DNA of 64,000 nucleotides from a virus: positions 128,001-192,000 of the IMG/VR virus record IMGVR_UViG_3300045988_177154. One strand, written 5' to 3'. This document shows positions 27,971 through 54,635 of this stretch, piece by piece. Under the pieces are notes generated by a model that saw nothing but the letters and a program-made list of their open reading frames with translations, was not told the origin of the DNA and did not search any database. Position numbers and translations under genes: made by a program. Positions within the stretch are counted from its first letter, which is position 1, and each line of letters begins with the position of its first letter.

Positions 27971-28909
27971 ATGAGTCAAATGCACATTGGAAGTAGAGGT
28001 GTGCCTATGAAATGTGTGGCACAACCAGGCAAATGCCCGAAAGCACCAGGTATTGGGCACTTTGAGAAAGTGGAACAAGCTCAAGAATTTGCAGACCGCT
28101 TAAACGAATTAGAAGCGAACGGGTTTACTTATAAAGATGTTCCAAAAGAAGATATTAGCAAGCTTGATAATGCACAACTAATCCTTGTTCAAAAGGAATT
28201 GAATGCTCACAAATCGGAATATGAAGATTACAAGCAACGTATCAAATGGCGTAAGGAAGTTAGGTCAAAAGCCCAACGTGAAATGAAATCTATTATTGAT
28301 GATAATAATAGTCAAATTGCAAGAGTAGTACAAGCTAATAATTTAACTGCACAAGCTCGTAGAGCATGGAAAAATGCAGAGGGTGAAGAAAGAAAAGCTG
28401 CTTATACTCAATATAAAGAAGCATTAGCAAATAGTAATGCTATCTATCAAGAAGCAAGTGAAATCACAAAAACTAATCAAGAAAATTTTGCTAAATTAGT
28501 AGATAAGAAAGAGAAAGCAGAAACAGAGCTACAAGAATTTATGGAAGCAAGAGCTGTTCAATCAAGTGAAAAGAATTATGCTATTAACGTAGATGCTGAA
28601 GTAGATAAACGTGAAATGGAGAAAATTGAAGGCTCAGTGGAATCGTCTAAAGAGGAAGCTCCTAAAAGTAGCCAAAGTAGCAGAGTGCTTAATGAGAAAC
28701 AAATGAAATTAGTAAGCAGATTGCTAGAAACAGCAGGGCTTGACAAAAAATTAGCAAAAGGATTACAAGAAAATTCTACAAAAGATGCTCCATTACACAA
28801 TCGAGCTGGAAAACATATTGGTCATGAATATGTTTACGAAATGCCAGATTATACTGCAGTCATTCAAGTAGATAAGAAAAATACTATCCAAGATTTCATG
28901 TACTATTAA
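27971..28909 (+). CDS. CKN-module protein 1: N-terminal Cys/His module plus a long K/E/Q-rich coiled coil
   Basis: MSQMHIGSRGVPMKCVAQPGKCPKAPGIGHFEKVEQAQEFADRLNE aligns with the N-termini of the 33658, 53826 and 45319(-) products. Confidence 0.75.
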   Translation: MSQMHIGSRGVPMKCVAQPGKCPKAPGIGHFEKVEQAQEFADRLNELEANGFTYKDVPKEDISKLDNAQLILVQKELNAHKSEYEDYKQRIKWRKEVRSKAQREMKSIIDDNNSQIARVVQANNLTAQARRAWKNAEGEERKAAYTQYKEALANSNAIYQEASEITKTNQENFAKLVDKKEKAETELQEFMEARAVQSSEKNYAINVDAEVDKREMEKIEGSVESSKEEAPKSSQSSRVLNEKQMKLVSRLLETAGLDKKLAKGLQENSTKDAPLHNRAGKHIGHEYVYEMPDYTAVIQVDKKNTIQDFMYY

Positions 28910-28938
28910 AAGAGGTGTTTTCACCTCTTTTATTTTTT
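28908..28938 (+). terminator. Rho-independent terminator
   Basis: AGAGGTG / CACCTCT stem followed by a T-run. Confidence 0.75.
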
Positions 28939-28957
28939 GGAATAATATAACTATAAG
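28939..28957 (+). promoter_or_regulatory. Conserved box GGAATAATATAACTATAAG (copy c)
   Basis: Exact 19-mer, directly after a terminator T-run and about 70 nt upstream of the SPFH gene. Confidence 0.55.
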
Positions 28958-29028
28958 AGTTGAAAAAGATATTTAAACTCATTAAATCATGCTTAAGAAA
29001 TTAAGCTATATTAAAGGAGAAAAAGATT

Positions 29029-29925
29029 ATGCCCTTTTTTATAATTTTTTTAATTATTGCTATTGCAGTACTTGCATTTTTCTTCTCAACTTACTACATT
29101 GTACCACAAGGAAGTGTAGCAATTGTTGAAAGATTAGGTAAATACCACAAAACTTCAACAGCTGGTTTACATTTCTGTTTGCCTTTAGGAATTGATAAAG
29201 TTGCTATTAAATTACCACTTCGTATGCAACAAGAAGAAATGGCAGTAGAAACAAAAACTAAAGATAATGTGTTCGTAGTTATGGCTATTGCTACACAATA
29301 CAGAGTTTCAGAAAATAATGTAACAGATGCTTTCTATAAATTGCTTCGTCCTAAAGCACAAATTCAATCTTACATTGAAGATGCTTTAAGAAACGCTGTT
29401 CCAAAATTAACTCTTGATGAACTTTTTGAAAAGAAAGATGAAATCGCTCTTGAAGTTCAAAAACAAGTTGCTGAAGAAATGTCAACATACGGTTACATAA
29501 TTGTTAAAACACTTATTACAAGAGTTGAACCTGACGCTGAAGTTAAACAATCAATGAACGAAATCAACGCAGCTCAACGTAAAAGAATGGCTGCTCAAGA
29601 ATTAGCAGAAGCAGATAAAATTAAAATTGTTACTGCAGCTGAAGCAGAAGCAGAAAAAGATAGATTACATGGTGTTGGTATTGCGAACCAACGTAAAGCT
29701 ATTGTTGATGGTTTAGCAGAATCTGTAAAAGAATTAAAAGACTCTAATATGCAATTAACTGAAGAATCAATTATGAGTATTCTATTAGTCAACCAATACT
29801 TAGACAGTTTAAATAATTTTGCCAAAGGAAATAACAGTACTATCTTCTTACCTTCAAATCCTACTGGAATTGAAGATATTAGAACTCAAATGCTAAGTGC
29901 ATTAGCAACAGATAAAAATAAATAA
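29029..29925 (+). CDS. SPFH/band-7 (stomatin/prohibitin-like) membrane protein
   Basis: N-terminal TM helix. YIVPQGSVAIVERLGKYHKT..GLHF and an A/E-rich coiled-coil tail are typical of the SPFH domain. Confidence 0.8.
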   Translation: MPFFIIFLIIAIAVLAFFFSTYYIVPQGSVAIVERLGKYHKTSTAGLHFCLPLGIDKVAIKLPLRMQQEEMAVETKTKDNVFVVMAIATQYRVSENNVTDAFYKLLRPKAQIQSYIEDALRNAVPKLTLDELFEKKDEIALEVQKQVAEEMSTYGYIIVKTLITRVEPDAEVKQSMNEINAAQRKRMAAQELAEADKIKIVTAAEAEAEKDRLHGVGIANQRKAIVDGLAESVKELKDSNMQLTEESIMSILLVNQYLDSLNNFAKGNNSTIFLPSNPTGIEDIRTQMLSALATDKNK

Positions 29926-29980
29926 AATTTTAGAAAAAGCACAAAAAATTGTGCTTTTTTCTTAGTTTAGCTTAGAAAGT

Positions 29981-29999
29981 GGAATAATATATAATAAAG
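29981..29999 (+). promoter_or_regulatory. Conserved box variant GGAATAATATATAATAAAG (copy d)
   Basis: Follows the terminator hairpin AAAGCACAAAAAATTGTGCTTTT. Lies 27 nt upstream of the HNH gene start. Confidence 0.5.
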
Positions 30000-30025
30000 A
30001 ACTCAAAATAGAAAGAATTGGTAAT

Positions 30026-30985
30026 ATGAAAAATTATAAATTATTCCAACAATTAACTGAAGAACAAAAGACTAAATATGTAGTAACTTCAAAATCTACG
30101 GACAATTATCCACATTTGTATAGTCCATCAAATTCTTCTTCACAATCAAGATATTTCTCTGAACGTATTGAAGGTGGGATGGGTGCAACTTTAAAAAGGG
30201 ATATTTGCCGTTATGCTATTTTCTTAACTCGAGGAAAATGTGCTTATTGTGGAGATACACTTATCAATTTAAAAAATGGTGAGAAATATGGAAGTAAAGA
30301 TTTGAATTGGGACCATATTAAACCAGCTTCAAAATGTAACATTCTAACTTATGGAAATGTATTGCTTTCATGTTCCGATTGTAACATTAAGAAAAGTGAT
30401 AAAGATACATTAACTTGGTTCAAAGAACAATTAGACAATGATGAGTTCCCTAATGCTTTGTTTACTTATAAAGAATTTGAAACTCTATTAAAACAAGAAT
30501 TTGAACAATATGCAAAAGATTATCCTTGGGCTAAATTAGTCAACTCAGACTACTTCCACAGCCCAAAAAACAATGATGAAAGAGATTTGACTCTTATAGC
30601 AATTCTTCAAGGAATGGGAATTTCCATTTTCCCTCCAATTTCTGTAAACAATTACAGGTGTTCAGCTGTCTTTAAGAATGAGCTTAATATTTTAATTGAA
30701 AAAGTTCCAGAGATTGCCAAACCTGAAAATTTCAAACTTGCAGAAAGATATTTCTTCAACAATTTTGGATATACTGAAACATTTCTGAAAGAAGATTTAA
30801 TCGACTCATTATTAGATTATAATAATTTTATTTTTGCATTTGAAGTGTTTCTTTCAAATCTTAATCAACACACTTATTCTAAAGTAAAAAAATTTGCTGA
30901 AACTATTATCGAATATTACTTCAAAAAAGATTATAAATTTCCAAGTTATAAAAAACGAATTATTTATTTGAAAGACATTGATTAA
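30026..30985 (+). CDS. HNH endonuclease-domain protein with a ~190-aa C-terminal extension
   Basis: CAYCGDTL...LNWDHIKPASK...NVLLSCSDCNIKKSDK matches the HNH/CCHH pattern. Confidence 0.75.
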   Translation: MKNYKLFQQLTEEQKTKYVVTSKSTDNYPHLYSPSNSSSQSRYFSERIEGGMGATLKRDICRYAIFLTRGKCAYCGDTLINLKNGEKYGSKDLNWDHIKPASKCNILTYGNVLLSCSDCNIKKSDKDTLTWFKEQLDNDEFPNALFTYKEFETLLKQEFEQYAKDYPWAKLVNSDYFHSPKNNDERDLTLIAILQGMGISIFPPISVNNYRCSAVFKNELNILIEKVPEIAKPENFKLAERYFFNNFGYTETFLKEDLIDSLLDYNNFIFAFEVFLSNLNQHTYSKVKKFAETIIEYYFKKDYKFPSYKKRIIYLKDID

Positions 30986-31018
30986 GAGTACTTATATAAG
31001 TGCTCTTTTCTCTTTTAT

Positions 31019-31047
31019 TTGACTATTTAAGAAAAATATTGTATAAT
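31019..31047 (+). promoter_or_regulatory. Sigma-70-type promoter
   Basis: TTGACT, 17-nt spacer, TATAAT. Confidence 0.65.
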
Positions 31048-31076
31048 AACTTAAATAACCTTTAGAAAGGGTAACA

Positions 31077-31430
31077 ATGGACGATAAAAACATTTTACTT
31101 ATAGAGATTATAAGTACTTTATTCGTGGCTAAACTCGTTGAACAAAAAATGTTAAATAGAACAGAGATTAAAGATTCATTTGAAGCTTTAGTTGATTATC
31201 AAAATGAATTATATGGAGCAGATTATGAAATTATATTAGATGAAAAAGATTGCTCGTTAAATCTACATTCATATTTAGATAGCATTAAAATCACTGCTAG
31301 ACTCATCAACCAGTTAATTCCCTTAACTCAAAAAGAAGAAGATAAGCACTTCCTTAGACAAATTAAATGGAATTTTGCTGACGAAGTTAAGTTTATTAAA
31401 AGCACCTTAAAAAATCAATTGGGTGAATAA
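31077..31430 (+). CDS. Hypothetical protein
   Basis: 117-aa ORF with an AAAGGG RBS. Confidence 0.6.
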   Translation: MDDKNILLIEIISTLFVAKLVEQKMLNRTEIKDSFEALVDYQNELYGADYEIILDEKDCSLNLHSYLDSIKITARLINQLIPLTQKEEDKHFLRQIKWNFADEVKFIKSTLKNQLGE

Positions 31431-31548
31431 CGCTAAATCAGTTTAAGGGTTGTTATATCGTCATATAAGCAACGCTAAAACAGTTAAAATTAACTTTCGA
31501 TACATTTATCGACTTTGAAGTAAAACAGCTCAAAACAGCTTAAACTTA
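31431..31548 (-). repeat. IGR-120 intergenic repeat, copy R5 (reverse)
   Basis: GGGTTGTTATATCGTCATATAAGCAACGCTAAAACAG is shared with R3. Palindrome TCGATACATTTATCGA, then AAAACAGCTCAAAACAGCTTAAAC. Confidence 0.85.
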
Positions 31549-31566
31549 AATAGAAAAGAGAATAAA

Positions 31567-32292
31567 ATGAAAAAACAAATTGCAGCCTTTTTTGACATTG
31601 ACGGAACAATTTATAGAGACTCATTAGTAACAGAGCTTTATAAAAAATTGCTTAAATATGAAATCATTCCACAAGAGGAATATATTAAACAAGTTAAAGA
31701 ACCATTAACTGCTTGGAAAAATCGCCAAGTTAGTTATGAAGATTATTTAGAAGCACTTACTGAAAACTTCTCAACAACAATTAAAGGATTAACTAAGGCT
31801 CAGATTGATTTTGTTACTGACCAAGTAATGAAATTAAGCTCAGATAAAGTTTATACTTATACTCGTGATAAAATCAATAATCATAAAGAACAAGGACATA
31901 TGGTTATCTTTATTTCAGGTTCGCCAGATTTTATTGTATCACGCATGGGAGAAAAATATAATGCTGATTTGGCAATTGGCTCTGGTTATGAATTTAAGAA
32001 AGATTTATTTACTGGAAAGATTAAACCAATGTGGACTTCACGAGCAAAAAATAAAAAAATCAATGAACTTGTTGAAGAATATAATATTGATTTAGAAAAT
32101 AGCTTTGCTTATGGAGATACAAACGGAGATACTTTAATGCTTTCTAAAGTTGGAAATCCTATTGCTATCAATCCTAATAAAGAATTGCTTGCTAATATTA
32201 TGAAATTGAAAGATAATAGTCATTATAAAATTATTGTTGAACGTAAAGACTCAATTTACAATTTAACACCAGATATGCTAAAAGATATTTAA
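31567..32292 (+). CDS. HAD-superfamily hydrolase, subfamily IB (SerB-like)
   Basis: Motif I AAFFDIDGTIY, motif IV YGDTNGDTLML, helical cap between them. Confidence 0.7.
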   Translation: MKKQIAAFFDIDGTIYRDSLVTELYKKLLKYEIIPQEEYIKQVKEPLTAWKNRQVSYEDYLEALTENFSTTIKGLTKAQIDFVTDQVMKLSSDKVYTYTRDKINNHKEQGHMVIFISGSPDFIVSRMGEKYNADLAIGSGYEFKKDLFTGKIKPMWTSRAKNKKINELVEEYNIDLENSFAYGDTNGDTLMLSKVGNPIAINPNKELLANIMKLKDNSHYKIIVERKDSIYNLTPDMLKDI

Positions 32293-32318
32293 TTTAAAAA
32301 CTATAAGGAGCTAATCTT

Positions 32319-33252: not shown

Positions 33253-33349
33253 AAAAGAACTTAATCTAAAAATAATAACTTTGTATTGAAAACAATTTAA
33301 AAATTTGTTATAATAGTAAAAATGAACTCAATAGAAAGGAGATGAAAAT

Positions 33350-33559: not shown

Positions 33560-33657
33560 TAGCCTAAATAAAAGAACTAAATTTTAGTTCTTTTATTTTT
33601 TATCCTACCGGTTTGATATAACTTCTTAAATAAAACAATAAAGGATAGGATAGATAA

Positions 33658-34320
33658 ATGAGTAAAAAATACCACATTTCAAAAAATGGAATACCTGCAG
33701 TGTGTCATGCTCAACCGGGTAAATGCCCTATAGGTGGTAATGATGTTCACTTTGATTCTGTTGAAAAAGCTCAAGAATATGCAGATTATCAAAATCATTT
33801 CGAAGCACTGACTGAAAATCTTAATGCGACAGATACCCCGTCTGACCCTATGTATGACATTGTTAGGACAGATAGAGCACAATTAAATCTAAATATGAAA
33901 GGCTCTCAAGTTTATGTTGATACTGTTGATAATGTATTAAGTACAACTTCTGAACCAGATGGCGGAAGTACTTATAATCCTTATGTAAAAACTTCTCCAC
34001 AAGTTGGCTTCTGTTATTCACCTTATCCAGAGCGTTCAGTAGAATTTAGTTCTGTTGATGATTTGACATTAAGCACTTATGACGAATATTGTGAGCAAAA
34101 CAAAGACTTACTTAGTAAAGATAATCATTATGTAGGAACATGGCATGACCCAGCTACAGGTAAAATTTATCTTGATGTATCTATAAATACTATGGATGCT
34201 AAAGAAGCAAGAAAACAATGTGAAGATAATGACCAAATCGCTTACTTTGATTTACAAGATTTTACTTCTGTAACAGTTAATCAAAACGCTACAAGTGGTC
34301 AATCACCTCAAAAAGAATAA
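33658..34320 (+). CDS. CKN-module protein 2: N-terminal Cys/His module plus a ~170-aa globular domain of unknown function
   Basis: MSKKYHISKNGIPAVCHAQPGKCPIGGNDVHFDSVEKAQEYADYQN. The C-terminal domain contains GTWHDPATGKIYLDVS. Confidence 0.75.
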   Translation: MSKKYHISKNGIPAVCHAQPGKCPIGGNDVHFDSVEKAQEYADYQNHFEALTENLNATDTPSDPMYDIVRTDRAQLNLNMKGSQVYVDTVDNVLSTTSEPDGGSTYNPYVKTSPQVGFCYSPYPERSVEFSSVDDLTLSTYDEYCEQNKDLLSKDNHYVGTWHDPATGKIYLDVSINTMDAKEARKQCEDNDQIAYFDLQDFTSVTVNQNATSGQSPQKE

Positions 34321-34329
34321 ACTTTTCTA

Positions 34330-35779: not shown

Positions 35780-36943
35780 ATGAATACTAAAGAGAAAGAA
35801 ACATTAGCATCGAATACAGAACTTGCTAAAGAAGTATTAGCAACTCAAATGCTAAATACAAACGTAGAAGAGCTTGATTATTCATTAGCGGCACTTAAAG
35901 AACAAGACCGTGTTAAAGCTGTTCAAATTATGAAAGACCTTGATGAAAATAATTACTCATCATTGGATAATTTTGGGCAAGATGTTTATGATAAAGTAAA
36001 CGTTAATGCTAACAATGTTCTTTCAAATGTTAGAGGTAAAGATATTTCCAACTTAGGTTTAGACCTAGACACATTGCTTGAGAAAGTTAACAGTATCTCA
36101 CCTAAAGATATTAACAAAGCTGACCCTAGCAAAGCATTGTTCAAAGATATTTTTGGTTTTGCTCGCCGACACTTGTATCGCCTGAAAAATCATTATAGCT
36201 CATTGGATAGTCAAGTAGATACAATTGCAGAAAGCTTAGAATTATCTGTTGCAGAATTGCAAAATGACAATCGTACTTATGAAGCTCTTAAAGAACAAGC
36301 AAAACAAACATTTGAAGAATTGAATGCTTATATTGCAGCTGGAGAAGCTAAAGTCCTTGAATTAGGTCATACAATTGATGAAACCAATAAATCTATTGAA
36401 AATGATAACACTTCTAATAAGATGAGTTTGACTACACAAACGACTTCTCTTGTAAATTATCAAACACGACTACGCAAAAAGACTCAAGATATGCGTAACT
36501 TACAATTCTATCTTGCGTTTATTCAATACCCATCAATCAGCCAATTGCAATCTGATAATGAATTGGTAATCAATAATATTCGTGATACAATTCAAAACGG
36601 ATTACCTATCTACAAAACTAACTTGACAACAATTCTTGGAGCACTACGTACTCGTAAAGCTATTGAACAAACAAAAGCTGTTCGTGAAGTTATCAATAAA
36701 CAAATTTCTCTTGCTGTAGATATGGTTCAAAAGAACGCCGAAGATATTTCAAAATCTGCTATGGAAACAACTATTGATACACAAGTAATTATTGACGCTG
36801 CTCGTAAAATGCAAGAAACTCATGAAAAACTATCTGCTGTTCGTAATGAAGCAGTCAAGGCATTTGATGAACAATCTAAGGCTTTGGAAGAAGCAACAAA
36901 TAAAATTAACAATCATTTGAAAATCGTTGGAGGAGCTAAATAA
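35780..36943 (+). CDS. TelA-like toxic-anion-resistance family protein
   Basis: 387-aa all-helical protein. Its length and layout (LDNFGQD early, long helical repeats) match my memory of TelA/YceH. No strict motif was checked. Confidence 0.55.
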   Translation: MNTKEKETLASNTELAKEVLATQMLNTNVEELDYSLAALKEQDRVKAVQIMKDLDENNYSSLDNFGQDVYDKVNVNANNVLSNVRGKDISNLGLDLDTLLEKVNSISPKDINKADPSKALFKDIFGFARRHLYRLKNHYSSLDSQVDTIAESLELSVAELQNDNRTYEALKEQAKQTFEELNAYIAAGEAKVLELGHTIDETNKSIENDNTSNKMSLTTQTTSLVNYQTRLRKKTQDMRNLQFYLAFIQYPSISQLQSDNELVINNIRDTIQNGLPIYKTNLTTILGALRTRKAIEQTKAVREVINKQISLAVDMVQKNAEDISKSAMETTIDTQVIIDAARKMQETHEKLSAVRNEAVKAFDEQSKALEEATNKINNHLKIVGGAK

Positions 36944-38697: not shown

Positions 38698-38931
38698 ATG
38701 GCTATCACTGTATATGGAAAACAAAATTGTAAACAATGTGAATTTACTAAGAAATTTCTTGATTCAAAACACGCAAGCTTCGTTTATGAAGATTTAACTA
38801 ATGACATTGACAAACAAATTGCTTTGAAAGAAAAGTACAATGTTGAGAAAATGTCTTTACCATTTGTTGTTACTGACACTGCTACTTGGTCAGGTTTCCA
38901 ACCAGACAAATTAGCAAAAGCAATTAAATAA
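38698..38931 (+). CDS. nrdH: NrdH-like glutaredoxin/thioredoxin-fold protein
   Basis: 77 aa. ITVYGKQNCKQCEFTKKFL carries a CxxC site near the N-terminus. SLPFVV and WSGF as in NrdH. Confidence 0.65.
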   Translation: MAITVYGKQNCKQCEFTKKFLDSKHASFVYEDLTNDIDKQIALKEKYNVEKMSLPFVVTDTATWSGFQPDKLAKAIK

Positions 38932-39557: not shown

Positions 39558-39770
39558 ATGAAAAAATCAAAAACTAACAGAAAACTTGACGGCGTATTGG
39601 GTGGTATTGCTGAATATTGTAACGTTGACCCAACACTATTACGTTTAGGCTATTTCGTATTCGGTTGTTTCTACCCTGGATTAGCACTTATAATGTATGT
39701 TGGAGCAAGTATTATCATGTCTAACGCCGATAATAATTCTGAAACAGATAATACTGAAAATAAAGAATAG
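39558..39770 (+). CDS. PspC-domain membrane protein
   Basis: KLDGVLGGIAEYCNVDPTLLRLGYFVF followed by one TM helix. Confidence 0.75.
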   Translation: MKKSKTNRKLDGVLGGIAEYCNVDPTLLRLGYFVFGCFYPGLALIMYVGASIIMSNADNNSETDNTENKE

Positions 39771-41146: not shown

Positions 41147-43762
41147 ATGAAAAAACAAACTATTATTGCCGGAGCTGCTATTCTGGCCTCAACTACTGGA
41201 ACAACTGCATTCGCAGAGGAAGTTAACCCAACTACTCCTCCTACTGAAATTGTAGCCACAACTACAACTGATACAGTAACAACAACTAATAATGTAGCTA
41301 AACCTGTTGAAACAACAGAAGCTACTACTACAACAGAAAATGCTACTCCTATCGAGAAAGCAGAAAAACAAGTAGGAGAAACTGGCAAAGCAGTTACTGA
41401 CGCTGAAAATTCTGCTAAAGAAACTTTCGAAAAAGAAACTCAAGATAAATCTGCTTATGACAAAGCAACAAATGAAGCAAAAAAAGCTCAAGGTGATGTT
41501 GATAAAACAAAAGAAGATTTAACTAATTCTAAAAATAAATTAGCAGAAGATGAATCAAAAGCTCCTCAATTAGAGAAAAAACTTGCTAATGCTAATAAAT
41601 CTGTAACAGATACAGAAAAAGAAATTTCTGATACAAAAAATGATTTGGCAGCTGCTAAAGAAAATCAATCTAATGAAGAAGCTAAAATCCAACCACAAGT
41701 TAATGCTTTGAAGAAAGCTACTACTGACAAAAAGAATGCTCAAGATAAAGTAGATACTATCAAACAAGATTTGAAAACTAATCAAGCAAATGAAGCTACT
41801 TTAACTGGCGAAATCAATGATTTAACTGCTGCTAAAGAAGTTGCTAACAAAGAAGTAACTTCTACAGGCAATGCTTTGGAAAATGCTAAAAAAGCTGACC
41901 AAACTCGTGCTAATAATATTGCTTCACAAAAAACAATTGTAGCACAAGATACAACAGACAAAAATAATTCTATCGCAACAGAAAAAGCAAAAACTGCTGA
42001 AAAAGAAAAATTAGCTACTGATTTGGATTCTGCTAAGAAAGCATTAGCAGACAATTTGGAAATTCCATTAACAGATGCTTATATTTCTGCTCTTAAAGCT
42101 TATAAACAAAACAAAACAACTGCTAACAGTGACGCTGTAAATAAAATTGCTCAAGAAATTCTAAAATCAAAACAAGTTAAAGCTGCAATGGAATTGCTTA
42201 AAGAAAGTGATACACGTGCTGTTGACCCATCTAATCTTACAACTGAACAATTAAAAGAATTGAATATCCGTATGGCTCAATTTATTGAAGATGTACGTAC
42301 TAAATTCGGTACATTCTCTCCAACTATGGTTCGTGTAAGTGAAGAATCAGTAAACCTATCTAAACTTATCGGTGAAACATATAAAAATGCTATTCGTAAA
42401 GCTGCTGGTAATACAAATCCTACTGTATGGAACGCAGCTGAATTAGGCCACTTGAAGAGTAGCGAAACTGTTGGTGCTAACTTAACAAAAGCTGGTTATA
42501 ACACTACAGCTGCTCCAATTCGTATGGAAACACTTGCTTATTCACCTGAAACAGATATGACAACAATGGGTGAACTAAAAGCTGAAGTTTACAACAGCAT
42601 GATTCGTTGGTTGTATGATGATGAATTGAGTGATTGGGGCCATGCTCTTATCCAATCTGGTTTAGTTTGGAACTACAAGAAAACTGAATTACAAACTTTC
42701 GTAGTTCAAGACGGAAGCTACGTGTTGATTGGTGCTGATGAAACAAGCTTGAAAGAGCAAGATAGCAAATTGAAAACTAAAGAGTATGACATTCCAACAA
42801 CAGATTTCAATGCAGCTAACGCTCGTGTAACTACTCTTGAAAAACAAATCGAAACAAACAAAGCTGAATTGGCTCAAGCTACTAAGAATGTAAAAGCTAC
42901 AACTCAAAAACTTGAAGATTCAACAAATGAATTGAAACGTTTAGAAGCAGTTGAGATTCTTACACCAAAAGCTCAAGAAGCTTATGACAATGCAGTTGCT
43001 AAACATACTGATTTATCTAACCAATTAACAGACAAGAAAAATACTCTTGCTACTGTTCAAGCTAAGATTAAAGAATTAAACATTGCTCTTCCACAAGCTG
43101 AAACTGCTTTAGAAAATGCTACAAAAGTTTACGATAATGCTAAATCTGAATATGATAAAGTAAGTGCTGATGTAGAAAAAGCAAAAGCAGAAGTGAAGCG
43201 TATTGAAAATCAATTAGAAACACTTAATGCTAAATTAAAAGACAACAAAGCAAATGTTGCTTCTACTCAAGAAGAAATTGCTAACAACAACAAAGAAATT
43301 GAAACACTAACAAATTCAATTAAAGAACTTGAAAAACAACTTAAAGAGCAAGAAAAAACACTTGAAGAAAAAGTTAAAGTTCAAAAAGAAAAAGAAGCAA
43401 TTTACTTGAAAGCTAAAGAAGCTGCTGATAAAGAACGTGCTAAAATTGCTGAACTTAAAGCAAAACACGAAGAAGCGGTTTCTAAATTAGAAGCATTGAA
43501 AGAAGAACAAGCTCGTAAAGAACAAGAAAAGGCTCGTGAAGAACAACGACAAAGAGAGCTTGAAGATTACAACCGTGCTATTGATGAAGTATTGTATGGA
43601 ACAAATGCTACAACAAATACAACAACTCCTAACAAATCTAAAAACACATTGCCGGTAACTAACACTTCTAATGAATCAATCTATATTGTTTTTGGGGCTG
43701 CTATTCTTGCCTTCCTTGCTGGACTTGGTTTATACTTCAAAAAGAAAAACAAAAAAGACTAA
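41147..43762 (+). CDS. Cell-wall-anchored coiled-coil surface protein, PrgA/Sec10 surface-exclusion-like
   Basis: Signal peptide MKKQTIIAGAAILASTTGTTAFA. Long K/E/A/T coiled coils flank a central globular domain (..SDWGHALIQ..). C-terminus has LPVTN, a hydrophobic helix and a KKKNKKD tail (sortase-type sorting signal with N in place of G). Confidence 0.55.
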   Translation: MKKQTIIAGAAILASTTGTTAFAEEVNPTTPPTEIVATTTTDTVTTTNNVAKPVETTEATTTTENATPIEKAEKQVGETGKAVTDAENSAKETFEKETQDKSAYDKATNEAKKAQGDVDKTKEDLTNSKNKLAEDESKAPQLEKKLANANKSVTDTEKEISDTKNDLAAAKENQSNEEAKIQPQVNALKKATTDKKNAQDKVDTIKQDLKTNQANEATLTGEINDLTAAKEVANKEVTSTGNALENAKKADQTRANNIASQKTIVAQDTTDKNNSIATEKAKTAEKEKLATDLDSAKKALADNLEIPLTDAYISALKAYKQNKTTANSDAVNKIAQEILKSKQVKAAMELLKESDTRAVDPSNLTTEQLKELNIRMAQFIEDVRTKFGTFSPTMVRVSEESVNLSKLIGETYKNAIRKAAGNTNPTVWNAAELGHLKSSETVGANLTKAGYNTTAAPIRMETLAYSPETDMTTMGELKAEVYNSMIRWLYDDELSDWGHALIQSGLVWNYKKTELQTFVVQDGSYVLIGADETSLKEQDSKLKTKEYDIPTTDFNAANARVTTLEKQIETNKAELAQATKNVKATTQKLEDSTNELKRLEAVEILTPKAQEAYDNAVAKHTDLSNQLTDKKNTLATVQAKIKELNIALPQAETALENATKVYDNAKSEYDKVSADVEKAKAEVKRIENQLETLNAKLKDNKANVASTQEEIANNNKEIETLTNSIKELEKQLKEQEKTLEEKVKVQKEKEAIYLKAKEAADKERAKIAELKAKHEEAVSKLEALKEEQARKEQEKAREEQRQRELEDYNRAIDEVLYGTNATTNTTTPNKSKNTLPVTNTSNESIYIVFGAAILAFLAGLGLYFKKKNKKD

Positions 43763-45318: not shown

Positions 45319-46164
45319 TTAAGTCCTAATTGTTAAACGAATGCTATCGCCTCTATCATTAAATTTAGAGAACTCATCGTATCTACCTGCATCTTTAAGA
45401 GCTTTTGTATCTACAATATTTTTCGTATATTCTGGCACATATGAAAGTGTTGCAGTACCAACTTTAATTTCATCAACACCTGCTTCTTTCATGTTTTCCA
45501 TAATTTCATTTCGCATTTGTTTTTCTAATTCTTTAGTTTGTTTTAAAGTATCTTCAAATTGTTTTAATTGGCGTAGAGCTTCTCTAGTTTCGTCATTGAT
45601 TTGAGCATTACCATCTTCATCAACACTTAAATTAAAGTTAATTGACTCACCTGATGGCATAACCATACGTTCCTCAAAGCGAATAGCTCTAGCATCTTTT
45701 TCAACATCTAATGAAGTATGCTCTCTCACATTTACTTCTTTTGAATATTGTTCATAAAGACCACTTTCTTTTAATCTTTCTGTATCTACACCAAGAACAG
45801 GTTTACCCTCAATAAATGAGATGCTTCCCACTTCATCTTTGATAGATTTCACATTTAACTCTTTCATAGAGTTAAGGATTTGATTTCTAGCGTTTTCTTT
45901 AATATTATCTAAACGCTTCATAACAATACGCAAGTTATTAAGTTTAACAACTGCTAATTCTGTTTCTTTATCAACTTGAACCCAATTACCACTTCTTGCA
46001 ATTCCAAATGATTGAGCACTTTGTAATTGTTCGTTTAAATCATCAGCAATCGCCATGCCTTCATCAATTGTATTGAAATGGTCAGAAATTGCTCCGTAAG
46101 GGCATGCTTTAGTAGCTCTACATCGCTTTGGTGTTCCGTCTTTTCCAATATGATACTTAGCCAT
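45319..46164 (-). CDS. CKN-module protein 3: N-terminal Cys/His module plus two tandem ~85-aa modules (Gp157-like by eye)
   Basis: MAKYHIGKDGTPKRCRATKACPYGAISDHFNTIDEGMAIADDLNE. The internal duplication is NQILNSMKELNVKSIK..VGSISFIEGK..VDTERLKESGLYEQYSK versus NEIMENMKEAGVDEIK..GTATLSYVPE..VDTKALKDAGRYDEFSK. Confidence 0.7.
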   Translation of the reverse strand: MAKYHIGKDGTPKRCRATKACPYGAISDHFNTIDEGMAIADDLNEQLQSAQSFGIARSGNWVQVDKETELAVVKLNNLRIVMKRLDNIKENARNQILNSMKELNVKSIKDEVGSISFIEGKPVLGVDTERLKESGLYEQYSKEVNVREHTSLDVEKDARAIRFEERMVMPSGESINFNLSVDEDGNAQINDETREALRQLKQFEDTLKQTKELEKQMRNEIMENMKEAGVDEIKVGTATLSYVPEYTKNIVDTKALKDAGRYDEFSKFNDRGDSIRLTIRT

Positions 46165-46349
46165 TATTCCACCTCATCTTCGTCTAAGTCAATAACTAAA
46201 TCGTCAATAACTAACCTTTTAAGATTATTAGCTTTCATGAAGAAAATTAGTTTTTCTCTTAATACAATCATACTTTCTGCTTGTTTATCTAATTTAGCTT
46301 GGTTATTTTCTAACTTCTCTAAATTAGAGTTAATTTCTGCTTTATTCAT
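46164..46349 (-). CDS. Small coiled-coil protein, translationally coupled to CKN protein 3
   Basis: 61 aa. Its TAA overlaps the downstream ATG (TAATG on the minus strand). Acidic tail DLDEDEVE. Confidence 0.55.
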   Translation of the reverse strand: MNKAEINSNLEKLENNQAKLDKQAESMIVLREKLIFFMKANNLKRLVIDDLVIDLDEDEVE

Positions 46350-48277: not shown

Positions 48278-48379
48278 TGTTAATATTTCTTATCATTTGG
48301 CTTAAAGAAGTTTTACAAGGTGACGATGGTTTGGTTCTGAAAAGGCAAAAGGGTTACAATGCCGTTTCTTTTTATTTTT

Positions 48380-48453
48380 GGACCATTAGCTCAATTGGTC
48401 AGAGCACCCGGCTCATAACCGGATGGTTGCAGGTTCGAACCCTGCATGGTCCA
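48380..48453 (+). tRNA. tRNA with CAT anticodon (elongator Met, or Ile2 if lysidinylated)
   Basis: Hand-folded cloverleaf: acceptor GGACCAT/ATGGTCC, D-arm GCTC-AATTGGTCA-GAGC, anticodon loop CTCATAA, T-arm GCAGG-TTCGAAC-CCTGC. No encoded CCA. Confidence 0.85.
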
Positions 48454-48588
48454 TTCCTAGTTTGGCATATAGTCGACTATGCTAATATTGGTAGGGCCCG
48501 TTAGTGACCCCATATTGAGTTCTAAATCCAGTAACGTAACGGACGATAGTTCTGAATATGAATGTAGGTTCGATTCCTATCTAGGAAA
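48454..48588 (+). ncRNA. tRNA-like element E2, ~134 nt (too long for a canonical tRNA)
   Basis: Starts directly after the Met tRNA. Perfect 7-bp acceptor-type stem TTCCTAG/CTAGGAA, canonical T-arm GTAGG-TTCGATT-CCTAT, 6-bp D-like stem GGCATA/TATGCT. About 78 nt lie where a 17-nt anticodon arm plus variable loop belongs, and I could not fold a clean anticodon arm. Confidence 0.3.
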
Positions 48589-48617
48589 TAAAAATTTAAA
48601 TTTTTTAAATTTTTCTA

Positions 48618-48647
48618 TTGACTTTGCTTAAAATTGTGATATAATAA
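48618..48647 (+). promoter_or_regulatory. Sigma-70-type promoter of the second RNA cluster
   Basis: TTGACT, 18-nt spacer including a TG, TATAAT. Confidence 0.6.
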
Positions 48648-48693
48648 TATTATCGGATATGACAAAAGCATCTAAATGATGCTCCTTTCTTAT

Positions 48694-48767
48694 GGCCTGC
48701 TAGCTCAATTGGATAGAGCACACGCCTTCTAAGCGTGCGGTTATAGGTTCGAATCCTATGTGGGCCA
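48694..48767 (+). tRNA. tRNA-Arg (TCT)
   Basis: Acceptor GGCCTGC/GTGGGCC, D-arm GCTC-AATTGGATA-GAGC, anticodon arm CACGC-CTTCTAA-GCGTG, T-arm ATAGG-TTCGAAT-CCTAT. No encoded CCA. Confidence 0.85.
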
Positions 48768-49144
48768 TTACTTAGACTCGGACAGCTATCTCATTTAATA
48801 TAGGAAAAATACATTAAAGATACAGTCACCAATTTTTTAAAACAATTTTAAAACGAATTTACGAGTCTAGAATTTAGGAACGAACAGCAATCCTTTTCTA
48901 AACAACTATTAAAGCTAAATAATAATTTGAAATGAAAAAGAGAGTTCCTAGTTTGATTTAAGGGGTTTCTTGTGAAGTTAAATTAGTTCAAAACTAATAA
49001 CTCCTATAAAGCGGGGCCTTTGATTTCCCCCGCTTGAAAATCACTAAAAATAAATGCTCCTAAGAATTTATTTTTTGTTTTTTTCGTTTCTTTTCATTTC
49101 ATTCCGCTTGGGTAATACTTCCTCCTGTTACCCAAGTACATTAT

Positions 49145-49215
49145 TACGGGTTAGTGAAAAGGTATCACATAGGGCTCATTACCCTAAATTGGGGGTTCGA
49201 ATCCCTCGCCCGCAA
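49145..49215 (+). tRNA. Atypical tRNA with CAT anticodon (initiator-like anticodon stem)
   Basis: Acceptor TACGGGT/GCCCGCA with an A2xC71 mismatch. D-arm GTGA-AAAGGTA-TCAC. Anticodon arm TAGGG-CTCATTA-CCCTA has three G:C pairs next to the loop and T at position 37. T-arm GGGGG-TTCGAAT-CCCTC. Confidence 0.6.
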
Positions 49216-49240
49216 TTTCCATTGGCTACCACCGACAAAA

Positions 49241-49294
49241 AGCTCACTAATTCCAATCATAAAGATTGAAAATTAGTGAGCTTGGTGTTTTTTA
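49241..49294 (+). terminator. Rho-independent terminator of the RNA cluster
   Basis: 12-bp stem AGCTCACTAATT / AATTAGTGAGCT followed by a T-run. Confidence 0.8.
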
Positions 49295-49317
49295 TAAACA
49301 TGAAAGAAGGTTAATAA

Positions 49318-50424
49318 ATGAAATATAGTTACTCATACTATAATGAAGAAGATTTTGATACTTATGTTAAACAATTTGATAATTATTCTTTGCTTCAAAG
49401 TAGAGAATGGGGTGCAGTAAAAAGCCCTATATGGAAAAATAAAAAAGTTTTATTCTATGAAAATGAAAAAGTAGTAGGAACTGCCCTAATTCTTATTAGA
49501 GAAATTGCTTTTCATAAAAACTTTATCTACATTCCTTATGGGCCGCTTTTTGATTATTCTAATAAAGAATTATTTAACTTTGTAACAGAAAGCTTAAAGA
49601 AAATTGCTAAAGAAAATAAAGCAATTTTTGTAAAAGTAGTTCCACCTGTATTTGATGATAATTCTATTAGTGTCGATTTCAAAATTAACGGTTGGGTAGA
49701 AAATGTTACTGAAAAATCTTTTGATTCTATTCAACCAAAATTAAATGCTGTAATTAAAGATTTCAAAATGAGTAAAAGAATGAAACAAGAAAGACGAACA
49801 ACAGAAAATAAAAATGTACATTCTGTTTATTCTATTGACACTGAAGCTTCTTTTGAAACATTATTACATGATTTTTATTCTTTGACTAAATTAACTGAAA
49901 AAAGACAAGGTATTAAATTAAGAAATAAAGATTATTTCAGACAATTACTATATAGATACCCAAATTCATTCATTACTGTTTCTTATATTGATAAGGAAAA
50001 ACAAATTGCTAAATTAAATGAAGAATATAATAAATCAAATAGTGAAAAAGCTAAACAAGAATTAGAAAAACTTAAACATAATCAAGCTAAAAACATTCCG
50101 ATTTCAGGCACTCTTACTGTAATTTATGGAGATACGGCAGAATTACTCTATGCGGGATTTGACGATAATTTCAAATCATATAATTCTGCTTCTTATTCTT
50201 GGAGTAATTCTATTATGAAAGCTTTTGAGCTTAATCCTAATCTTAAATATGTAAATTTAGGTGGAGTAGAAAATGATGGGCACTTGCTAAACTTTAAAAA
50301 GAAATTCCACCCAGAGATTAGAACTTCTTGTAATGAATTTGATTTACCAATTAGTCCTTTATACTATTTATTCAAATTTGCTCTAAAACATAAGAAACTT
50401 ATTCTCAAATTTATCAAAAAATAA
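49318..50424 (+). CDS. FemAB/MurM-family aminoacyl-tRNA-dependent peptidoglycan peptidyltransferase
   Basis: LLQSREWGAVK, YIPYGPLFDYS, AIFVKVVPP, a coiled-coil insert (EKQIAKLNEEYNKSNSEKAKQELEKLK), then GTLTVIYGDTAELLYAGFDD and YVNLGGV. This is the FemABX layout. Confidence 0.7.
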   Translation: MKYSYSYYNEEDFDTYVKQFDNYSLLQSREWGAVKSPIWKNKKVLFYENEKVVGTALILIREIAFHKNFIYIPYGPLFDYSNKELFNFVTESLKKIAKENKAIFVKVVPPVFDDNSISVDFKINGWVENVTEKSFDSIQPKLNAVIKDFKMSKRMKQERRTTENKNVHSVYSIDTEASFETLLHDFYSLTKLTEKRQGIKLRNKDYFRQLLYRYPNSFITVSYIDKEKQIAKLNEEYNKSNSEKAKQELEKLKHNQAKNIPISGTLTVIYGDTAELLYAGFDDNFKSYNSASYSWSNSIMKAFELNPNLKYVNLGGVENDGHLLNFKKKFHPEIRTSCNEFDLPISPLYYLFKFALKHKKLILKFIKK

Positions 50425-50563
50425 AATTACTTGATATAATATATAAAGAGGGGTTAACTACTACTCTTCTTTATATATTGATTGTCAATAAATTTAATCT
50501 TAATGGTTGCAAAATAAATTTATTTTTGATACAATATTTAAAATGATATTTTATAAACTTTTT

Positions 50564-50652
50564 GGAGAGGTACTCAAGTCTGGTTAAGAGGACGGTTTGC
50601 TAAGCCGTTAGGTCGTTAATTCGGCGCGTGGGTTCGAATCCCATCCTCTCCA
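50564..50652 (+). tRNA. tRNA-Ser (GCT), type II with a long variable arm
   Basis: Acceptor GGAGAGG/CCTCTCC, anticodon arm ACGGT-TTGCTAA-GCCGT, 19-nt variable arm, T-arm GTGGG-TTCGAAT-CCCAT. Discriminator is A. No encoded CCA. Confidence 0.85.
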
Positions 50653-50696
50653 TATTTTATACATTAAAAAACTTTCAATAAGAAAGGAGCATAACT

Positions 50697-52611
<1,915 letters not shown>

Positions 52612-52640
52612 GAAAGCAGATTTATTGCTTTCCTTTCTTT

Positions 52641-52750
52641 GCATAAAACGCAGTTTAGGACAGCTAGAGAACAGCTAATAAAATCATATACAAACTAACA
52701 TAAGTATTGCTCAAACAGCTTAGGAACAAACTACTGCTGTCTGAGTGCAA
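52641..52750. repeat. IGR-120 intergenic repeat, copy R8 (degenerate, mixed orientation)
   Basis: CAAACAGCTTAGG (reverse word) followed by ACTGCTGTCTGAG (the forward start seen in R4 and R10). Follows the rmlB terminator. Confidence 0.5.
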
Positions 52751-52771
52751 AATAGAAAGGGTTTTTAACTT

Positions 52772-53812
52772 ATGAATGAAGTAATTATACCAATCACACC
52801 AATTATGAAATTAAAAGCTTTTAATCAAGCAACTTTTATGAAAAATAGAAGTGGTAATAAAATCCAACAATACGGAAAAGATTATAGTAATTCAAGTGAG
52901 GAACAATCTTTTAATAATACCATTGTTGGTGAATTAGGAGAATTAGCTTTTAGAGAATATTTGAAAGATAATAATTTATATTACACTGATGATGAAAGAG
53001 AGTTAATTAACAAAGGGCATGATTACAATTCCCCTACCAAAAAATCTGATATGGGTGATTTCTTTTGTAGTAAAACTCAAGAAAGCATAGATTTAAAAAC
53101 AAACCATCTTTCATCAGGTAAGAATATTCTGATTAAGAAATGGGTACATGAATGGCGACCTATTGATTTCTATGTAAGTCTTTCAATTTATCCATTAAAT
53201 AGCTGTAAGTCAGAGTTTGATTTAAACAAAGTTACTCATGCAGTAATTCATGGTTATGTTTCAGGTGAGGAGTTTATGAAGAATGGGACTCAAATTACTG
53301 CTAAAGGATTTGGCTATCCTAGATATAAATTAAGACCTTTTTCAGAGTTATTCCCTAGATTTTATAAAACAAATGAATTACCAGTAACAAAAGAACAAAA
53401 GACTATTACTTTAGATGAATATAAAGAGCTTAACAAGCAAGAAAATATTGTAAATATATTCTTTACAGATAGTGTTCAATCTATTACTCATTGGGATATG
53501 AAATATGTATTAGACGAGCAACAAAGATTAGAAATTACTGTTTATAAGAATATAAAGCATTATGATAGGCACAAAAAGATAAAAATAAACAATAGAAATA
53601 TTTTTTGTACTATTATAAATAAAGATAATACTATTGATGTACAAATGTTAATTAGAGCTTTGCGAAGAACTTCTGCTATGGCTGAATTAAACGGGTACAA
53701 ATTAGTTATTCCTTGGTACAAATTAAAAGAAATTGTAGACCCTTATGACTTAGAATTAGTCGATTATTACTTGAAAGATTTTTCATGGATAAAGGTTGAT
53801 ATAGAGAACTAA
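52772..53812 (+). CDS. Hypothetical protein with a possible N-terminal PD-(D/E)xK nuclease fold
   Basis: GELGELAFREYL...MGDFF...QESIDLKT could supply E / D / (D/E)xK residues. By-eye evidence only. Confidence 0.35.
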   Translation: MNEVIIPITPIMKLKAFNQATFMKNRSGNKIQQYGKDYSNSSEEQSFNNTIVGELGELAFREYLKDNNLYYTDDERELINKGHDYNSPTKKSDMGDFFCSKTQESIDLKTNHLSSGKNILIKKWVHEWRPIDFYVSLSIYPLNSCKSEFDLNKVTHAVIHGYVSGEEFMKNGTQITAKGFGYPRYKLRPFSELFPRFYKTNELPVTKEQKTITLDEYKELNKQENIVNIFFTDSVQSITHWDMKYVLDEQQRLEITVYKNIKHYDRHKKIKINNRNIFCTIINKDNTIDVQMLIRALRRTSAMAELNGYKLVIPWYKLKEIVDPYDLELVDYYLKDFSWIKVDIEN

Positions 53813-53825
53813 AAAGGAGTAAACA

Positions 53826-54635
53826 ATGGCTTATCATGTATCATCTAAAGGAATTTTGACTGTATGTAAAGCCCAACCAGGTAAATGCCCATTGGGTGGT
53901 AAACATTTTGAAAATGAATCCGCGGGAATGGAATACTTAGACAATCTAAATAACAAAGAAAGCTTAATCGAAAAATTCAAAAATGCTCCAACACCAGGTG
54001 CTAGAATAAGATTAAGAAAAGAAATTAGATTATTAAATCAAGCATTAGGCTTAGAAGATGATGCCGATATTCCAGCTCCTCAACCGTCAAAAGAACAACT
54101 AGAAAGAGAAAGACGAATTAAGGAAAGAGAAATAGAAGAAGCTAAAAAAGAAAAAGAAATGGCCGAGAACTTAAAAGAATTTGAAAATAAAGAGTTCTTA
54201 TCTATTCCAAAAAATATAGAAAATTTAAGAAGTAATTATTTATTTAAAGAAAATTATTTCTCTCGTCAAGCTATGTATAAATCAACTTATAGGGGCGAAC
54301 AGAGTAGAGAAAATAGAGACCATAATACAGGTACTGCTATGTATGGCCAAGGAAGATACTCTACTACAAATAGAAAATACGCTTCAAAATTTGGAGAAGT
54401 CAGAACCGTTGATTATGAAGAAATGCCATCTAAACCTCTATCATTCAAAAATGCGACTGCTTTTGAAATGTTTGAACAAGAACTTGCAAGAGAACATAAC
54501 ATAGATAAAAGGCATATGTACCGTAATCAAGATTTATCAGAAATTATTAAAAAGATGGGCTATAATGGAGTAACAATTGGGCCTAAATCGGATATGGTTA
54601 TTGTTTCTTATGAGACTAAAATGAAAAATACTTAA
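53826..54635 (+). CDS. CKN-module protein 4: N-terminal Cys/His module, E/K-rich linker, C-terminal domain with a possible R-S-E ADP-ribosyltransferase-like pattern
   Basis: MAYHVSSKGILTVCKAQPGKCPLGGKHFENE. The C-terminal domain has TYRG, RYSTTN and FEQE in the order expected for R / STS / ExE, but the R-to-S spacing is short. Confidence 0.6.
   Translation: MAYHVSSKGILTVCKAQPGKCPLGGKHFENESAGMEYLDNLNNKESLIEKFKNAPTPGARIRLRKEIRLLNQALGLEDDADIPAPQPSKEQLERERRIKEREIEEAKKEKEMAENLKEFENKEFLSIPKNIENLRSNYLFKENYFSRQAMYKSTYRGEQSRENRDHNTGTAMYGQGRYSTTNRKYASKFGEVRTVDYEEMPSKPLSFKNATAFEMFEQELAREHNIDKRHMYRNQDLSEIIKKMGYNGVTIGPKSDMVIVSYETKMKNT

Follow-up and report, generated by a model that had tools for sequence, protein, structure and literature searches.

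The question raised by this locus is why four proteins with unrelated C-terminal bodies should begin with one and the same short Cys/His module. They are encoded in a stretch of 64,000 nucleotides, positions 128,001 to 192,000 of the IMG/VR virus record IMGVR_UViG_3300045988_177154, which as a whole is referred to here as the window, and they are labelled w1 to w4. Their common head is a previously undescribed domain of about 47 residues that defines a large multigene family, and it is tentatively read, with a little less than even confidence, as a structural zinc mini-domain used as a portable docking handle that would bring varied accessory proteins to one shared partner. The find is rated as a new domain family in a familiar use, that of one head on many bodies, on newly recognised giant elements. 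The four proteins and their module copies, each with the E value of its hidden Markov model (HMM) match, are the following:

27971..28909, plus strand: w1, 312 residues, consisting of the module, a long helical/charged region and a strain-variable tail from about residue 216
27971..28111, plus strand: module copy 1, w1 residues 1-47, MSQMHIGSRGVPMKCVAQPGKCPKAPGIGHFEKVEQAQEFADRLNEL, HMM E=8.6e-27
33658..34320, plus strand: w2, 220 residues, consisting of the module and an acidic globular body, isoelectric point 4.2, net charge -17
33658..33801, plus strand: module copy 2, w2 residues 1-48, MSKKYHISKNGIPAVCHAQPGKCPIGGNDVHFDSVEKAQEYADYQNHF, HMM E=5.3e-29
45319..46164, minus strand: w4, 281 residues, consisting of the module and two tandem Gp157/Gam-like units
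46027..46164, minus strand: module copy 4, w4 residues 1-46, MAKYHIGKDGTPKRCRATKACPYGAISDHFNTIDEGMAIADDLNEQ, HMM E=1.1e-24
53826..54635, plus strand: w3, 269 residues, consisting of the module, helical glutamate/lysine (E/K) linkers and a conserved C-terminal domain (YRGE...GRYSTTN...KKMGY.G)
53826..53960, plus strand: module copy 3, w3 residues 1-45, MAYHVSSKGILTVCKAQPGKCPLGGKHFENESAGMEYLDNLNNKE, HMM E=6.9e-26

The original prediction, made from the letters of the window, had proposed that these four proteins share an N-terminal Cys/His module and that what follows it is unrelated, and both claims stand. The open reading frames (ORFs) are present at the coordinates listed, with translations agreeing with the strings given earlier, and when aligned with MAFFT the four N-termini show three short indels and 11 invariant columns (M1, H5, G10, C15, A17, C22, P23, H30, F31, D42 and N45 in w1 numbering). 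BLASTP comparison with all window ORFs joins w1 to w2 at 5e-14, w2 to w3 at 4e-13, w1 to w3 at 3e-8, w1 to w4 at 1.5e-6, w2 to w4 at 4e-6 and w3 to w4 at 4e-4; all of these alignments lie within the first 44-76 residues, no other window ORF comes near, and the bodies fall into four different BLAST components. A six-frame regular-expression scan together with an HMM scan of all window ORFs returned exactly four module copies and no weaker ones. The shared head is real and lies far beyond chance, since a profile built from only six heads finds 2,355 cluster representatives at E<=1e-3.

That profile was searched exhaustively against 1.84 billion protein cluster representatives, and 429 of the matches reach E<=1e-10. 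Of the 150 matches listed, about 146 begin at residue 1, and the head-bearing proteins range in length from 49 to 473 residues. When 134 diverse members are compared, the His, Cys, Cys and His proposed to be invariant in the window are indeed present in all 134, on what is confidently predicted to be a hairpin, a loop and a helix, and invariance extends to the Ala near the first Cys and to the Pro that follows the second; G10, P12, G25, F31, A37, Q38 and D42 are each kept in at least 90% of members. The consensus of the head reads M-x-[KR]-[YF]-H-[IV]-x-K-x-G-x-P-x-x-C-x-A-x-x-G-x-C-P-[LFY]-G-G-x3-H-F-x-[ST]-x-E-E-A-Q-x-Y-A-D-K-x-N-E, often followed by [YFH]-G-[LI]-[LI]-P. The C-terminal regions of the same 134 members form 70 unrelated BLAST components, and the architecture of one constant head on unrelated bodies thus holds on a far larger scale than the four proteins from which it was proposed. 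Two samples of ten clusters contained only members from ENA, Logan, JGI/IMG or MGnify metagenome assemblies, and within these samples no NCBI or UniRef entry and no functional name was found. A word-indexed homolog search with the head profiles returned short fragments of at most 100 residues alone, which mostly resemble broken gene calls.

No family can be named for the head, as had been said of it from the start. No Pfam model covers it in w1 to w4 or in the 134 members, and even at E<=10 ten isolated heads gave no Pfam match, zinc fingers, Cauli_VI/HBD and DUF2188 included; NCBIfam, PHROGs and PADLOC likewise gave none on the head, and a profile search of PDB sequences at E<=10 returned nothing. 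Consensus heads compared by tblastn with 50,697 phage and 72,556 plasmid records found nothing at E<=1e-3. A single match at E<=10 in the phage records, to Salmonella phage smaug, was judged to be chance, and a candidate head locus on a high-GC contig of IMG/VR (L023) was rejected as a false positive after translation. Literature searches found no description of the module, and the text of the paper describing the Inocles, giant elements that are considered below, is without it and uses the word 'zinc' 0 times (PMC12340149).

The structure of the head was predicted with AlphaFold2 (AF2) from a 132-sequence alignment of w2 residues 1-60, a segment 100% identical over the 60 modelled residues to the BFVD entry A0A8S5RW18. 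The model has a mean predicted local distance difference test score (pLDDT) of 82. Two strands (residues 5-7 and 13-15) are followed by a loop that holds C23-P24 and by a short turn, after which come a beta-bridge at F32 and a helix spanning 35-55; the full-length AF2 model of w3 shows these elements again. Read along the consensus, the predicted layout is a beta-hairpin ([YF]-H-[IV]...G.P..C.A), a knuckle-like loop (G.CP[LFY]GG), a turn ending in H-F and an alpha-helix (EEAQ.YAD..N). In w2 numbering, C23 sits in the knuckle-like CP.GG turn and H31 just before the helix, and H6 and C16 would lie on the same face of the hairpin if its register is 5-15, 6-14, 7-13, which is assumed here and not read from the model. 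The predicted arrangement of H6, C16, C23 and H31 is compatible with one tetrahedral metal site, and the four invariant residues may thus be inferred, from their conservation and the model, to hold one structural zinc ion. A Foldseek search of PDB with the module model gave no significant match, the best having an E value of 1.3; the Kunitz/BPTI folds that headed the result (E 1.3-2.0) are not significant and reflect only a topological coincidence of hairpin plus helix.

The head resembles zinc ribbons and knuckles of the CPxCG kind, treble-clef and His-Cys box domains and the beta-beta-alpha-Me fold in having four Cys/His residues, a 'CP.G' turn and a hairpin plus helix of about 45 residues. 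It differs from these known zinc modules in the order of its residues, H-x9-C-x6-C-x5-8-H, which places one ligand on each structural element instead of using CxxC pairs, and it matches none of them by Pfam zinc-finger models, PDB sequences or fold under the thresholds given above. In several members (P0012, P0016, P0017, P0032 and P0038) the second half of the module is repeated one to two more times in the form [SC]P[LF]G..x.F...EEAQ..AD..N..YG, which does not include the first His and Cys, suggesting that the turn plus helix is a sub-unit in its own right; P0016 consists of little beyond the head and the repeated helices.

The surface of the module shows a second layer of conservation. The polar helix face formed by Q39, D43 and N46 (w2 numbering) is kept at 82-98% in clades whose overall identity is only 35-55%, the hairpin carries a conserved aromatic residue (Y/F5) and basic residues (K4, K9 and R/K17), and the helix is acidic. 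The isoelectric point of the module is near neutral, with a median of 6.3, a value that speaks against a basic DNA-binding surface of the classical kind; a near-neutral module with an acidic helix and a polar face suits protein binding better.

Behind the head, most bodies of the 134 members have no Pfam, PHROG or PADLOC match. Such matches as occur are rare and mutually different (Zn_ribbon_Top1, RNase_T/DEDDh, LysM and DUF7307, with restriction endonuclease (REase)-like ones as well), defence-system models of PADLOC show no systematic match among the bodies, and candidates for recognisable toxins are isolated cases, consisting of one UniProt entry named 'Zeta toxin' and of matches that are DEDD exonuclease-like or REase-like. 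From these matches the bodies would appear to include Gam/Gp157 nuclease-inhibitor-like units, a Zeta-toxin-like kinase, a DEDD exonuclease and a topoisomerase-type zinc ribbon. The earlier description of individual bodies in the window fared well for two of them and partly for a third. The tandem units expected in w4 are recovered, at about 85-100 residues, as two stretches each to phrog_6244 (2.6e-27) and to Sipho_Gp157 (2e-4, below Pfam's cutoff), with further matches to the RecE-like phrog_434 and the Mu Gam-like phrog_253. The globular domain of w2 corresponds to phrog_17808 over residues 100-211 and is distantly related by tblastn to two phage proteins, the 'internal virion protein' of Synechococcus phage S-CBP42 and gp73 of Gordonia phage Keelan. 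In w3 the E/K helix is borne out by the AF2 model, in which helices 31-52, 57-73 and 89-121 (the last of these being the E/K helix) are confident, whereas the ADP-ribosyltransferase (ART)-like domain that had been suggested for its C-terminus was given up: it finds no match in Pfam, NCBIfam or PDB and is modelled at pLDDT<50, at which a Foldseek search is meaningless, and a match to saporin (E=0.0065) was judged to be chance. The ADP-ribosylglycohydrolase gene of the window was likewise rejected as a partner of w3, being 35 kb away.

Bodies that are unrelated in sequence and fold also change between strains, by tail swapping, by splitting and by insertion of insertion sequences (ISs). Alleles of w1 in related assemblies have residues 1-215 in common, and the tail beyond them (28615-28909 in the window) is absent from alleles of 218 residues, about 95 residues long in the window and replaced by about 120 unrelated residues in P0014 (the comparison set being P0014, P0015 and L013:4584-5240). 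An ortholog of w3 is cut by a 2-bp deletion in the E/K linker into a head-only protein of 79 residues and a body ORF of 157 residues that begins at an internal Met, and this split allele is found in three independent assemblies (L001:10001-10805, L002 and L003), with the downstream codons still conserved. In another clade a paralog is cut after residue 82 by an insertion of the IS607 type, comprising a resolvase and TnpB (head gene at 10001-10249 and IS at 10397-12185 of L022). Units of the IS607/IS605 type, with a serine resolvase and TnpB, stand at differing sites between strains in L013, L015, L017 and L022.

The nature of the carrier bears on what the head might do. The window has a GC content of 29% and nearly all of its genes on one strand; family scans of its proteins found no capsid, terminase, portal or tail family, and a megablast search of 20 kb against phage and plasmid collections gave no match. 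The exact w2 protein occurs on oral metagenome contigs of 217-362 kb with polymorphic IS insertions, two IMG/VR uncultivated viral genomes (UViGs) of 281 and 315 kb are copies or relatives of the window DNA (L024/L025), and a relative is present in the saliva assembly BNJV01 (Yahara et al.). In BFVD, ten proteins of 'Siphoviridae sp. ctHip2' carry the head at probability 1.00, with lengths of 220, 267, 312, 269, 396, 268, 281, 379, 346 (the 'Zeta toxin') and 410 residues, among which those of 220, 312, 269 and 281 residues correspond to w2, w1, w3 and w4. The element to which the window belongs therefore holds at least ten members of the family, and related giant elements hold several per 10-20 kb. 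The features that bear most directly on the type of carrier are these:

61196..62899, plus strand: single-domain FtsK/SpoIIIE ATPase, 567 residues (PF01580 at 4.4e-14; phrog_1358 at 4.5e-35), a candidate VirD4-like conjugative coupling protein
48379-50653: four tRNA genes (Met, Arg-TCT, Met and Ser-GCT), interspersed with a FemAB-family gene at 49318-50424
41147-43762: LPXTG protein, 871 residues, with a cell-wall anchor and a long stretch resembling a coiled coil; all relatives have an ortholog, of 872-878 residues

Inocles are circular, IS-rich, plasmid-like elements of 293-395 kb from oral Streptococcus, whose enrichment lies in the cell fraction and not in that of virus-like particles (Kiguchi et al. 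2025, PMC12340149). They have a GC content of 24-32%, encode LPXTG proteins, sortase, S26 signal peptidase, NrdH, VirB4/VirD4 and tRNAs, and are recognised by the marker gene InoC, whose product of about 454 residues has a PF13814 replication-relaxation domain; their describers stress oxidative-stress functions (PMC12340149). Relatives of the window are of comparable size (217-362 kb), share the oral origin, the polymorphic IS insertions and a GC content within the Inocle range, and they or the window itself encode an LPXTG protein, an S26 signal peptidase, an NrdH-like glutaredoxin, a VirD4-like ATPase and tRNAs. They differ in that InoC (PF13814) is not found in the 64 kb of the window and in that public records call this DNA a virus, UniProt and BFVD filing it under 'Siphoviridae sp. 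ctHip2' and IMG/VR as UViGs. Yahara et al. described a 224-kb Streptococcus 'phage (plasmid-like element)' that is without hallmark genes, and the features of the window fit such an element. The carrier is thus probably a plasmid-like element of about 300-400 kb of oral Streptococcus of the Inocle type, membership being no more than probable because InoC was not found in the window, outside which the gene may lie. The virus label is likely a misclassification, since the window shows no capsid, terminase or tail family and agrees in content with the plasmid-like Inocles.

Heads also occur beyond the relatives of the window. Contigs of a second oral clade reach 504 kb, encode YSIRK/G5 surface proteins and have two head genes within 20 kb, and at least 12 head genes, several of them in tandem arrays, are found in a metagenome-assembled genome (MAG) from a digester, 'Clostridiales bacterium AS08sgBPME_396', together with FtsK ATPase homologs, DnaB, Pol III delta', a T2SSE ATPase and a pilin-like leucine-rich-repeat protein. 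ORFs flanking one head-gene array in this MAG (L007) are 36-48% identical to the window FtsK ATPase. Two of them, at 4906-5547 (minus strand) and 11158-11955 (minus strand), match residues 400-566 and 308-404 of the window protein and flank a 5.6-kb stretch with three module genes (array at 7492-10699); the pair could be a split ATPase gene or two paralogs. Another head-bearing contig, from the MUNK18 metagenome assembly, has Band_7, rubredoxin and ThiF genes, and others carry genes for a ribonucleotide reductase (RNR), an NrdI-like flavodoxin and ThyA. With a second oral clade, a digester MAG and other contigs all carrying heads, the family is thus a general marker of large self-replicating elements in low-GC Firmicutes.

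A tether to a common partner appears to be the most economical reading of a head that is so constant on bodies that are so varied. In the docking-handle reading, the four invariant residues would hold a structural zinc, the conserved helix face and the hairpin would form a binding surface, the head would dock many different bodies to one shared partner of the element by virtue of that surface, and new members of the family would arise by fusion of the head to new bodies. Docking of this kind is more likely to be protein-protein than nucleic-acid binding. Several points weigh on the other side. Zinc binding would be deduced from invariance and topology only, and the shared partner is itself a presumption of the reading. 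The basic residues of the hairpin are conserved, and to judge from the sequence they may yet contact nucleic acid. From the split allele of w3 it would appear that one body at least can persist when no head is covalently joined to it, or else that the gene is in decay. As to the carrier, Inocle membership of the window would rest on shared features, InoC not being among the window ORFs scanned (two ORFs of 451 and 447 residues have no Pfam match), and some head-bearing contigs have RNR and ThyA, genes typical of large phages, so the family may not be confined to plasmids.

Elements of the Inocle type, first described in 2025, are reportedly present in about three quarters of people, and most of their genes are unannotated; the head provides a compact marker for a family that forms several percent of Inocle proteins (at least 10 of roughly 300) and that recurs in other giant Firmicute elements of gut, farm-animal and digester metagenomes. 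Since some 70 or more unrelated bodies have these 47 residues in common, a single interaction experiment with the head could give a cellular address to hundreds of uncharacterised proteins. The family is also a new entry for domain databases, and the finding exposes a conflict between virus and plasmid in the public classification of the window's element.

Among other explanations, an unlikely but arguable one is that the head is a delivery tag, read by transfer or secretion machinery such as the FtsK/VirD4-like ATPase, and that the bodies are polymorphic effectors exported with the DNA. The head is strictly N-terminal, its bodies are highly diverse, C-terminal tails swap between strains, one sibling is named a Zeta toxin and w4 has units resembling nuclease inhibitors of the Gam/Gp157 kind, all of which would agree with such a role. 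The likeness extends to LXG proteins of the type VIIb secretion system (T7SSb), MIX/FIX/RIX proteins of the type VI secretion system (T6SS), PE/PPE proteins of ESX and MuF-toxin fusions of temperate phages, in each of which one N-terminal domain stands on many unrelated bodies, with many paralogs per genome and C-terminal ends swapping between strains. Diverse bodies behind one N-terminal domain are indeed the logic by which the LXG, MIX/RIX and MuF markers were recognised. The head of the window proteins differs from these in its size of about 47 residues, in its Cys/His basis and in having no sequence or fold relationship to them; furthermore, no cognate secretion system or immunity genes were found here, and most bodies are not recognisable toxins.

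Machinery for the delivery tag could be sought in the FtsK/SpoIIIE ATPase of the window, of which homologs stand beside the module-gene array in the digester MAG (L007), and in the VirB4 and VirD4 reported to be encoded by Inocles (PMC12340149). The FtsK protein of the window, however, has a single ATPase domain and no T7SS components were seen in the window, and the module genes are scattered among metabolic and stress genes, not near a transfer locus. Known type IV secretion signals are C-terminal or internal, on substrates that are probably unfolded, and no folded zinc domain at an N-terminus is known to serve as one; such a signal would be unprecedented. Nor are immunity-like partner genes evident next to w1 to w4: w1 is followed by Band_7, w2 by a conserved ORF of 82 residues and then FolD, w3 by a pyridine-nucleotide oxidoreductase gene, and w4 faces a convergent gene, so that the ORF of 82 residues could be the sole candidate immunity gene.

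Of the two versions of this idea in the original prediction, transfer in a capsid is weakened because the carrier is plasmid-like, with no capsid genes seen and a VirD4-like FtsK ATPase, and transfer by conjugation is possible. Capsid-targeting sequences (CTSs) of phage T4 internal proteins and the polyvalent proteins offer a parallel, in that variable accessory or anti-host proteins of a mobile element have one element-specific feature at their N-termini in common. In T4 the CTS is a cleaved peptide of about 10-20 residues, not a folded zinc domain, and polyvalent proteins, reportedly described by Iyer et al. in 2017, are said to be very long multi-domain chains of conjugative elements and phages. 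The head proteins do not match the Pfam LPD domains of the latter, and the window has no capsid genes. It is improbable that the head is the signal of a novel delivery route in giant Gram-positive plasmid-like elements, read by an FtsK/VirD4-type ATPase or a hub; if it were, anti-defence and host-manipulating proteins would accompany the DNA in transfer or be exported to oral bacteria nearby, and the head would represent a new class of secretion or transfer signal and a marker by which the effector repertoire of Inocle-like elements could be listed from metagenomes.

Similarly improbable is a tether to nucleic acid, in which the head would be a zinc knuckle or hybrid-binding-like beta-beta-alpha domain anchoring the bodies to element DNA, RNA or hybrids. 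The model for it is RNase H1, in which an N-terminal hybrid-binding domain (HBD) anchors the enzyme to nucleic acid; the HBD (Cauli_VI) and DUF2188 resemble the head as N-terminal hairpin-plus-helix domains of about 45 residues that are followed by a linker and a functional body. The head pattern [YF]H[IV]KKDG.PG.C...HF.s.EEA also recalls what we take to be the HBD/DUF2188 pattern, YAV..G..PGIY...KKF.t.EEA, a likeness that serves as a lead only. The aromatic and basic residues of the hairpin, and bodies that would act on nucleic acids, such as the DEDD exonuclease, the topoisomerase zinc ribbon and the Gam/RecE-like units, fit this explanation. The profile searches, however, gave no match, with neither Cauli_VI/HBD, DUF2188 nor a zinc finger in Pfam at E<=10, and the sole DUF2188 match in BFVD stands at rank 17 with a probability of 0.14; Foldseek found no nucleic-acid-binding fold in PDB, the best match being the insignificant one to Kunitz inhibitors; the basic KK of the HBD is neutral or acidic in the head, which has a Cys/His site in place of helix 1; and the module as a whole is near neutral with an acidic helix.

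Slightly less probable still is the explanation that there is no common partner, the head being a stabilising or oligomerising cap, or a translation-start cassette, inherited in a paralog family while the bodies diverged or were exchanged, so that it would have no common role other than in folding or expression. The element is full of tandem paralog arrays, the module genes of the digester MAG are themselves arranged in tandem, and some members (P0016) are little more than the head and repeated helices. The bodies, however, are of clearly different folds and the proteins of widely different lengths (49-473 residues), which divergence alone cannot explain, and the retention of the surface-type residues Q39, D43 and N46 in clades of low overall identity is hard to explain without a binding function. 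The DNA upstream of the w1 to w4 genes, inspected by eye, has no shared promoter or operator motif, which likewise speaks against this explanation.

Zinc-thiolate sensors such as Hsp33 and the ZAS anti-sigma factors furnish the analogues for a last explanation, a Cys2His2 redox switch through which peroxide stress, typical of oral streptococcal communities, would free or activate the bodies. By analogy alone it would draw on the invariant Cys and His, on an element rich in redox and stress genes (a thioredoxin-reductase-like oxidoreductase, TelA and the glutaredoxin ortholog) and on the oxidative-stress functions emphasised for Inocles (PMC12340149), but it is very improbable, the head motif matching neither that of ZAS (HxxxCxxC) nor any Pfam model and most bodies having no link to stress responses.

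The docking handle is accordingly preferred among these readings on the strength given to it at the outset, and the genes that surround the head-bearing proteins can be described independently of it. Apart from the features already listed, the window contains the following:

883-3216: pyruvate formate-lyase (PFL)-like glycyl radical enzyme
4527-5699, minus strand: CCA-adding enzyme
15360-18562: two paralogs of about 450 residues
18578-19399: ADP-ribosylglycohydrolase, the only one in the window
21455-24891: four paralogs of about 270-290 residues with a weak DUF2207_C match, possibly membrane proteins
25959-27051: three tandem paralogs of about 110 residues
34703-35554: FolD
56313-58508: four paralogs of about 170-195 residues with overlapping starts and stops
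27132-27830, 29029-29925, 35780-36943, 39558-39770 and 66-581: ORFs of envelope-stress genes

The last of these entries refers to Bax1-I, Band_7/SPFH, TelA, PspC-like and MscS genes, a set of membrane and envelope-stress functions clustered around the module genes. The window further encodes an HNH endonuclease, a Pol III-type exonuclease, sugar-nucleotide enzymes, an S26 signal peptidase and a Thg1-family protein, as well as a dihydrofolate reductase (DHFR) and a cREC_REC domain protein; the ORF at 38698-38931 has an ortholog in the relatives that is annotated as a glutaredoxin, and the start of w4 abuts the end of an ORF of 61 residues (46164-46349, minus strand). The PFL-like enzyme, the ADP-ribosylglycohydrolase and FolD are auxiliary metabolic genes unusual for a plasmid. 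Elsewhere in the family, a class I RNR with a flavodoxin, and a thymidylate synthase, are encoded on module-bearing contigs at L027:666-4665 and L012:1254-2066, and a TET-associated glycosyltransferase, of the kind involved in DNA hypermodification, is encoded on another at L009:13124-14290 (minus strand).

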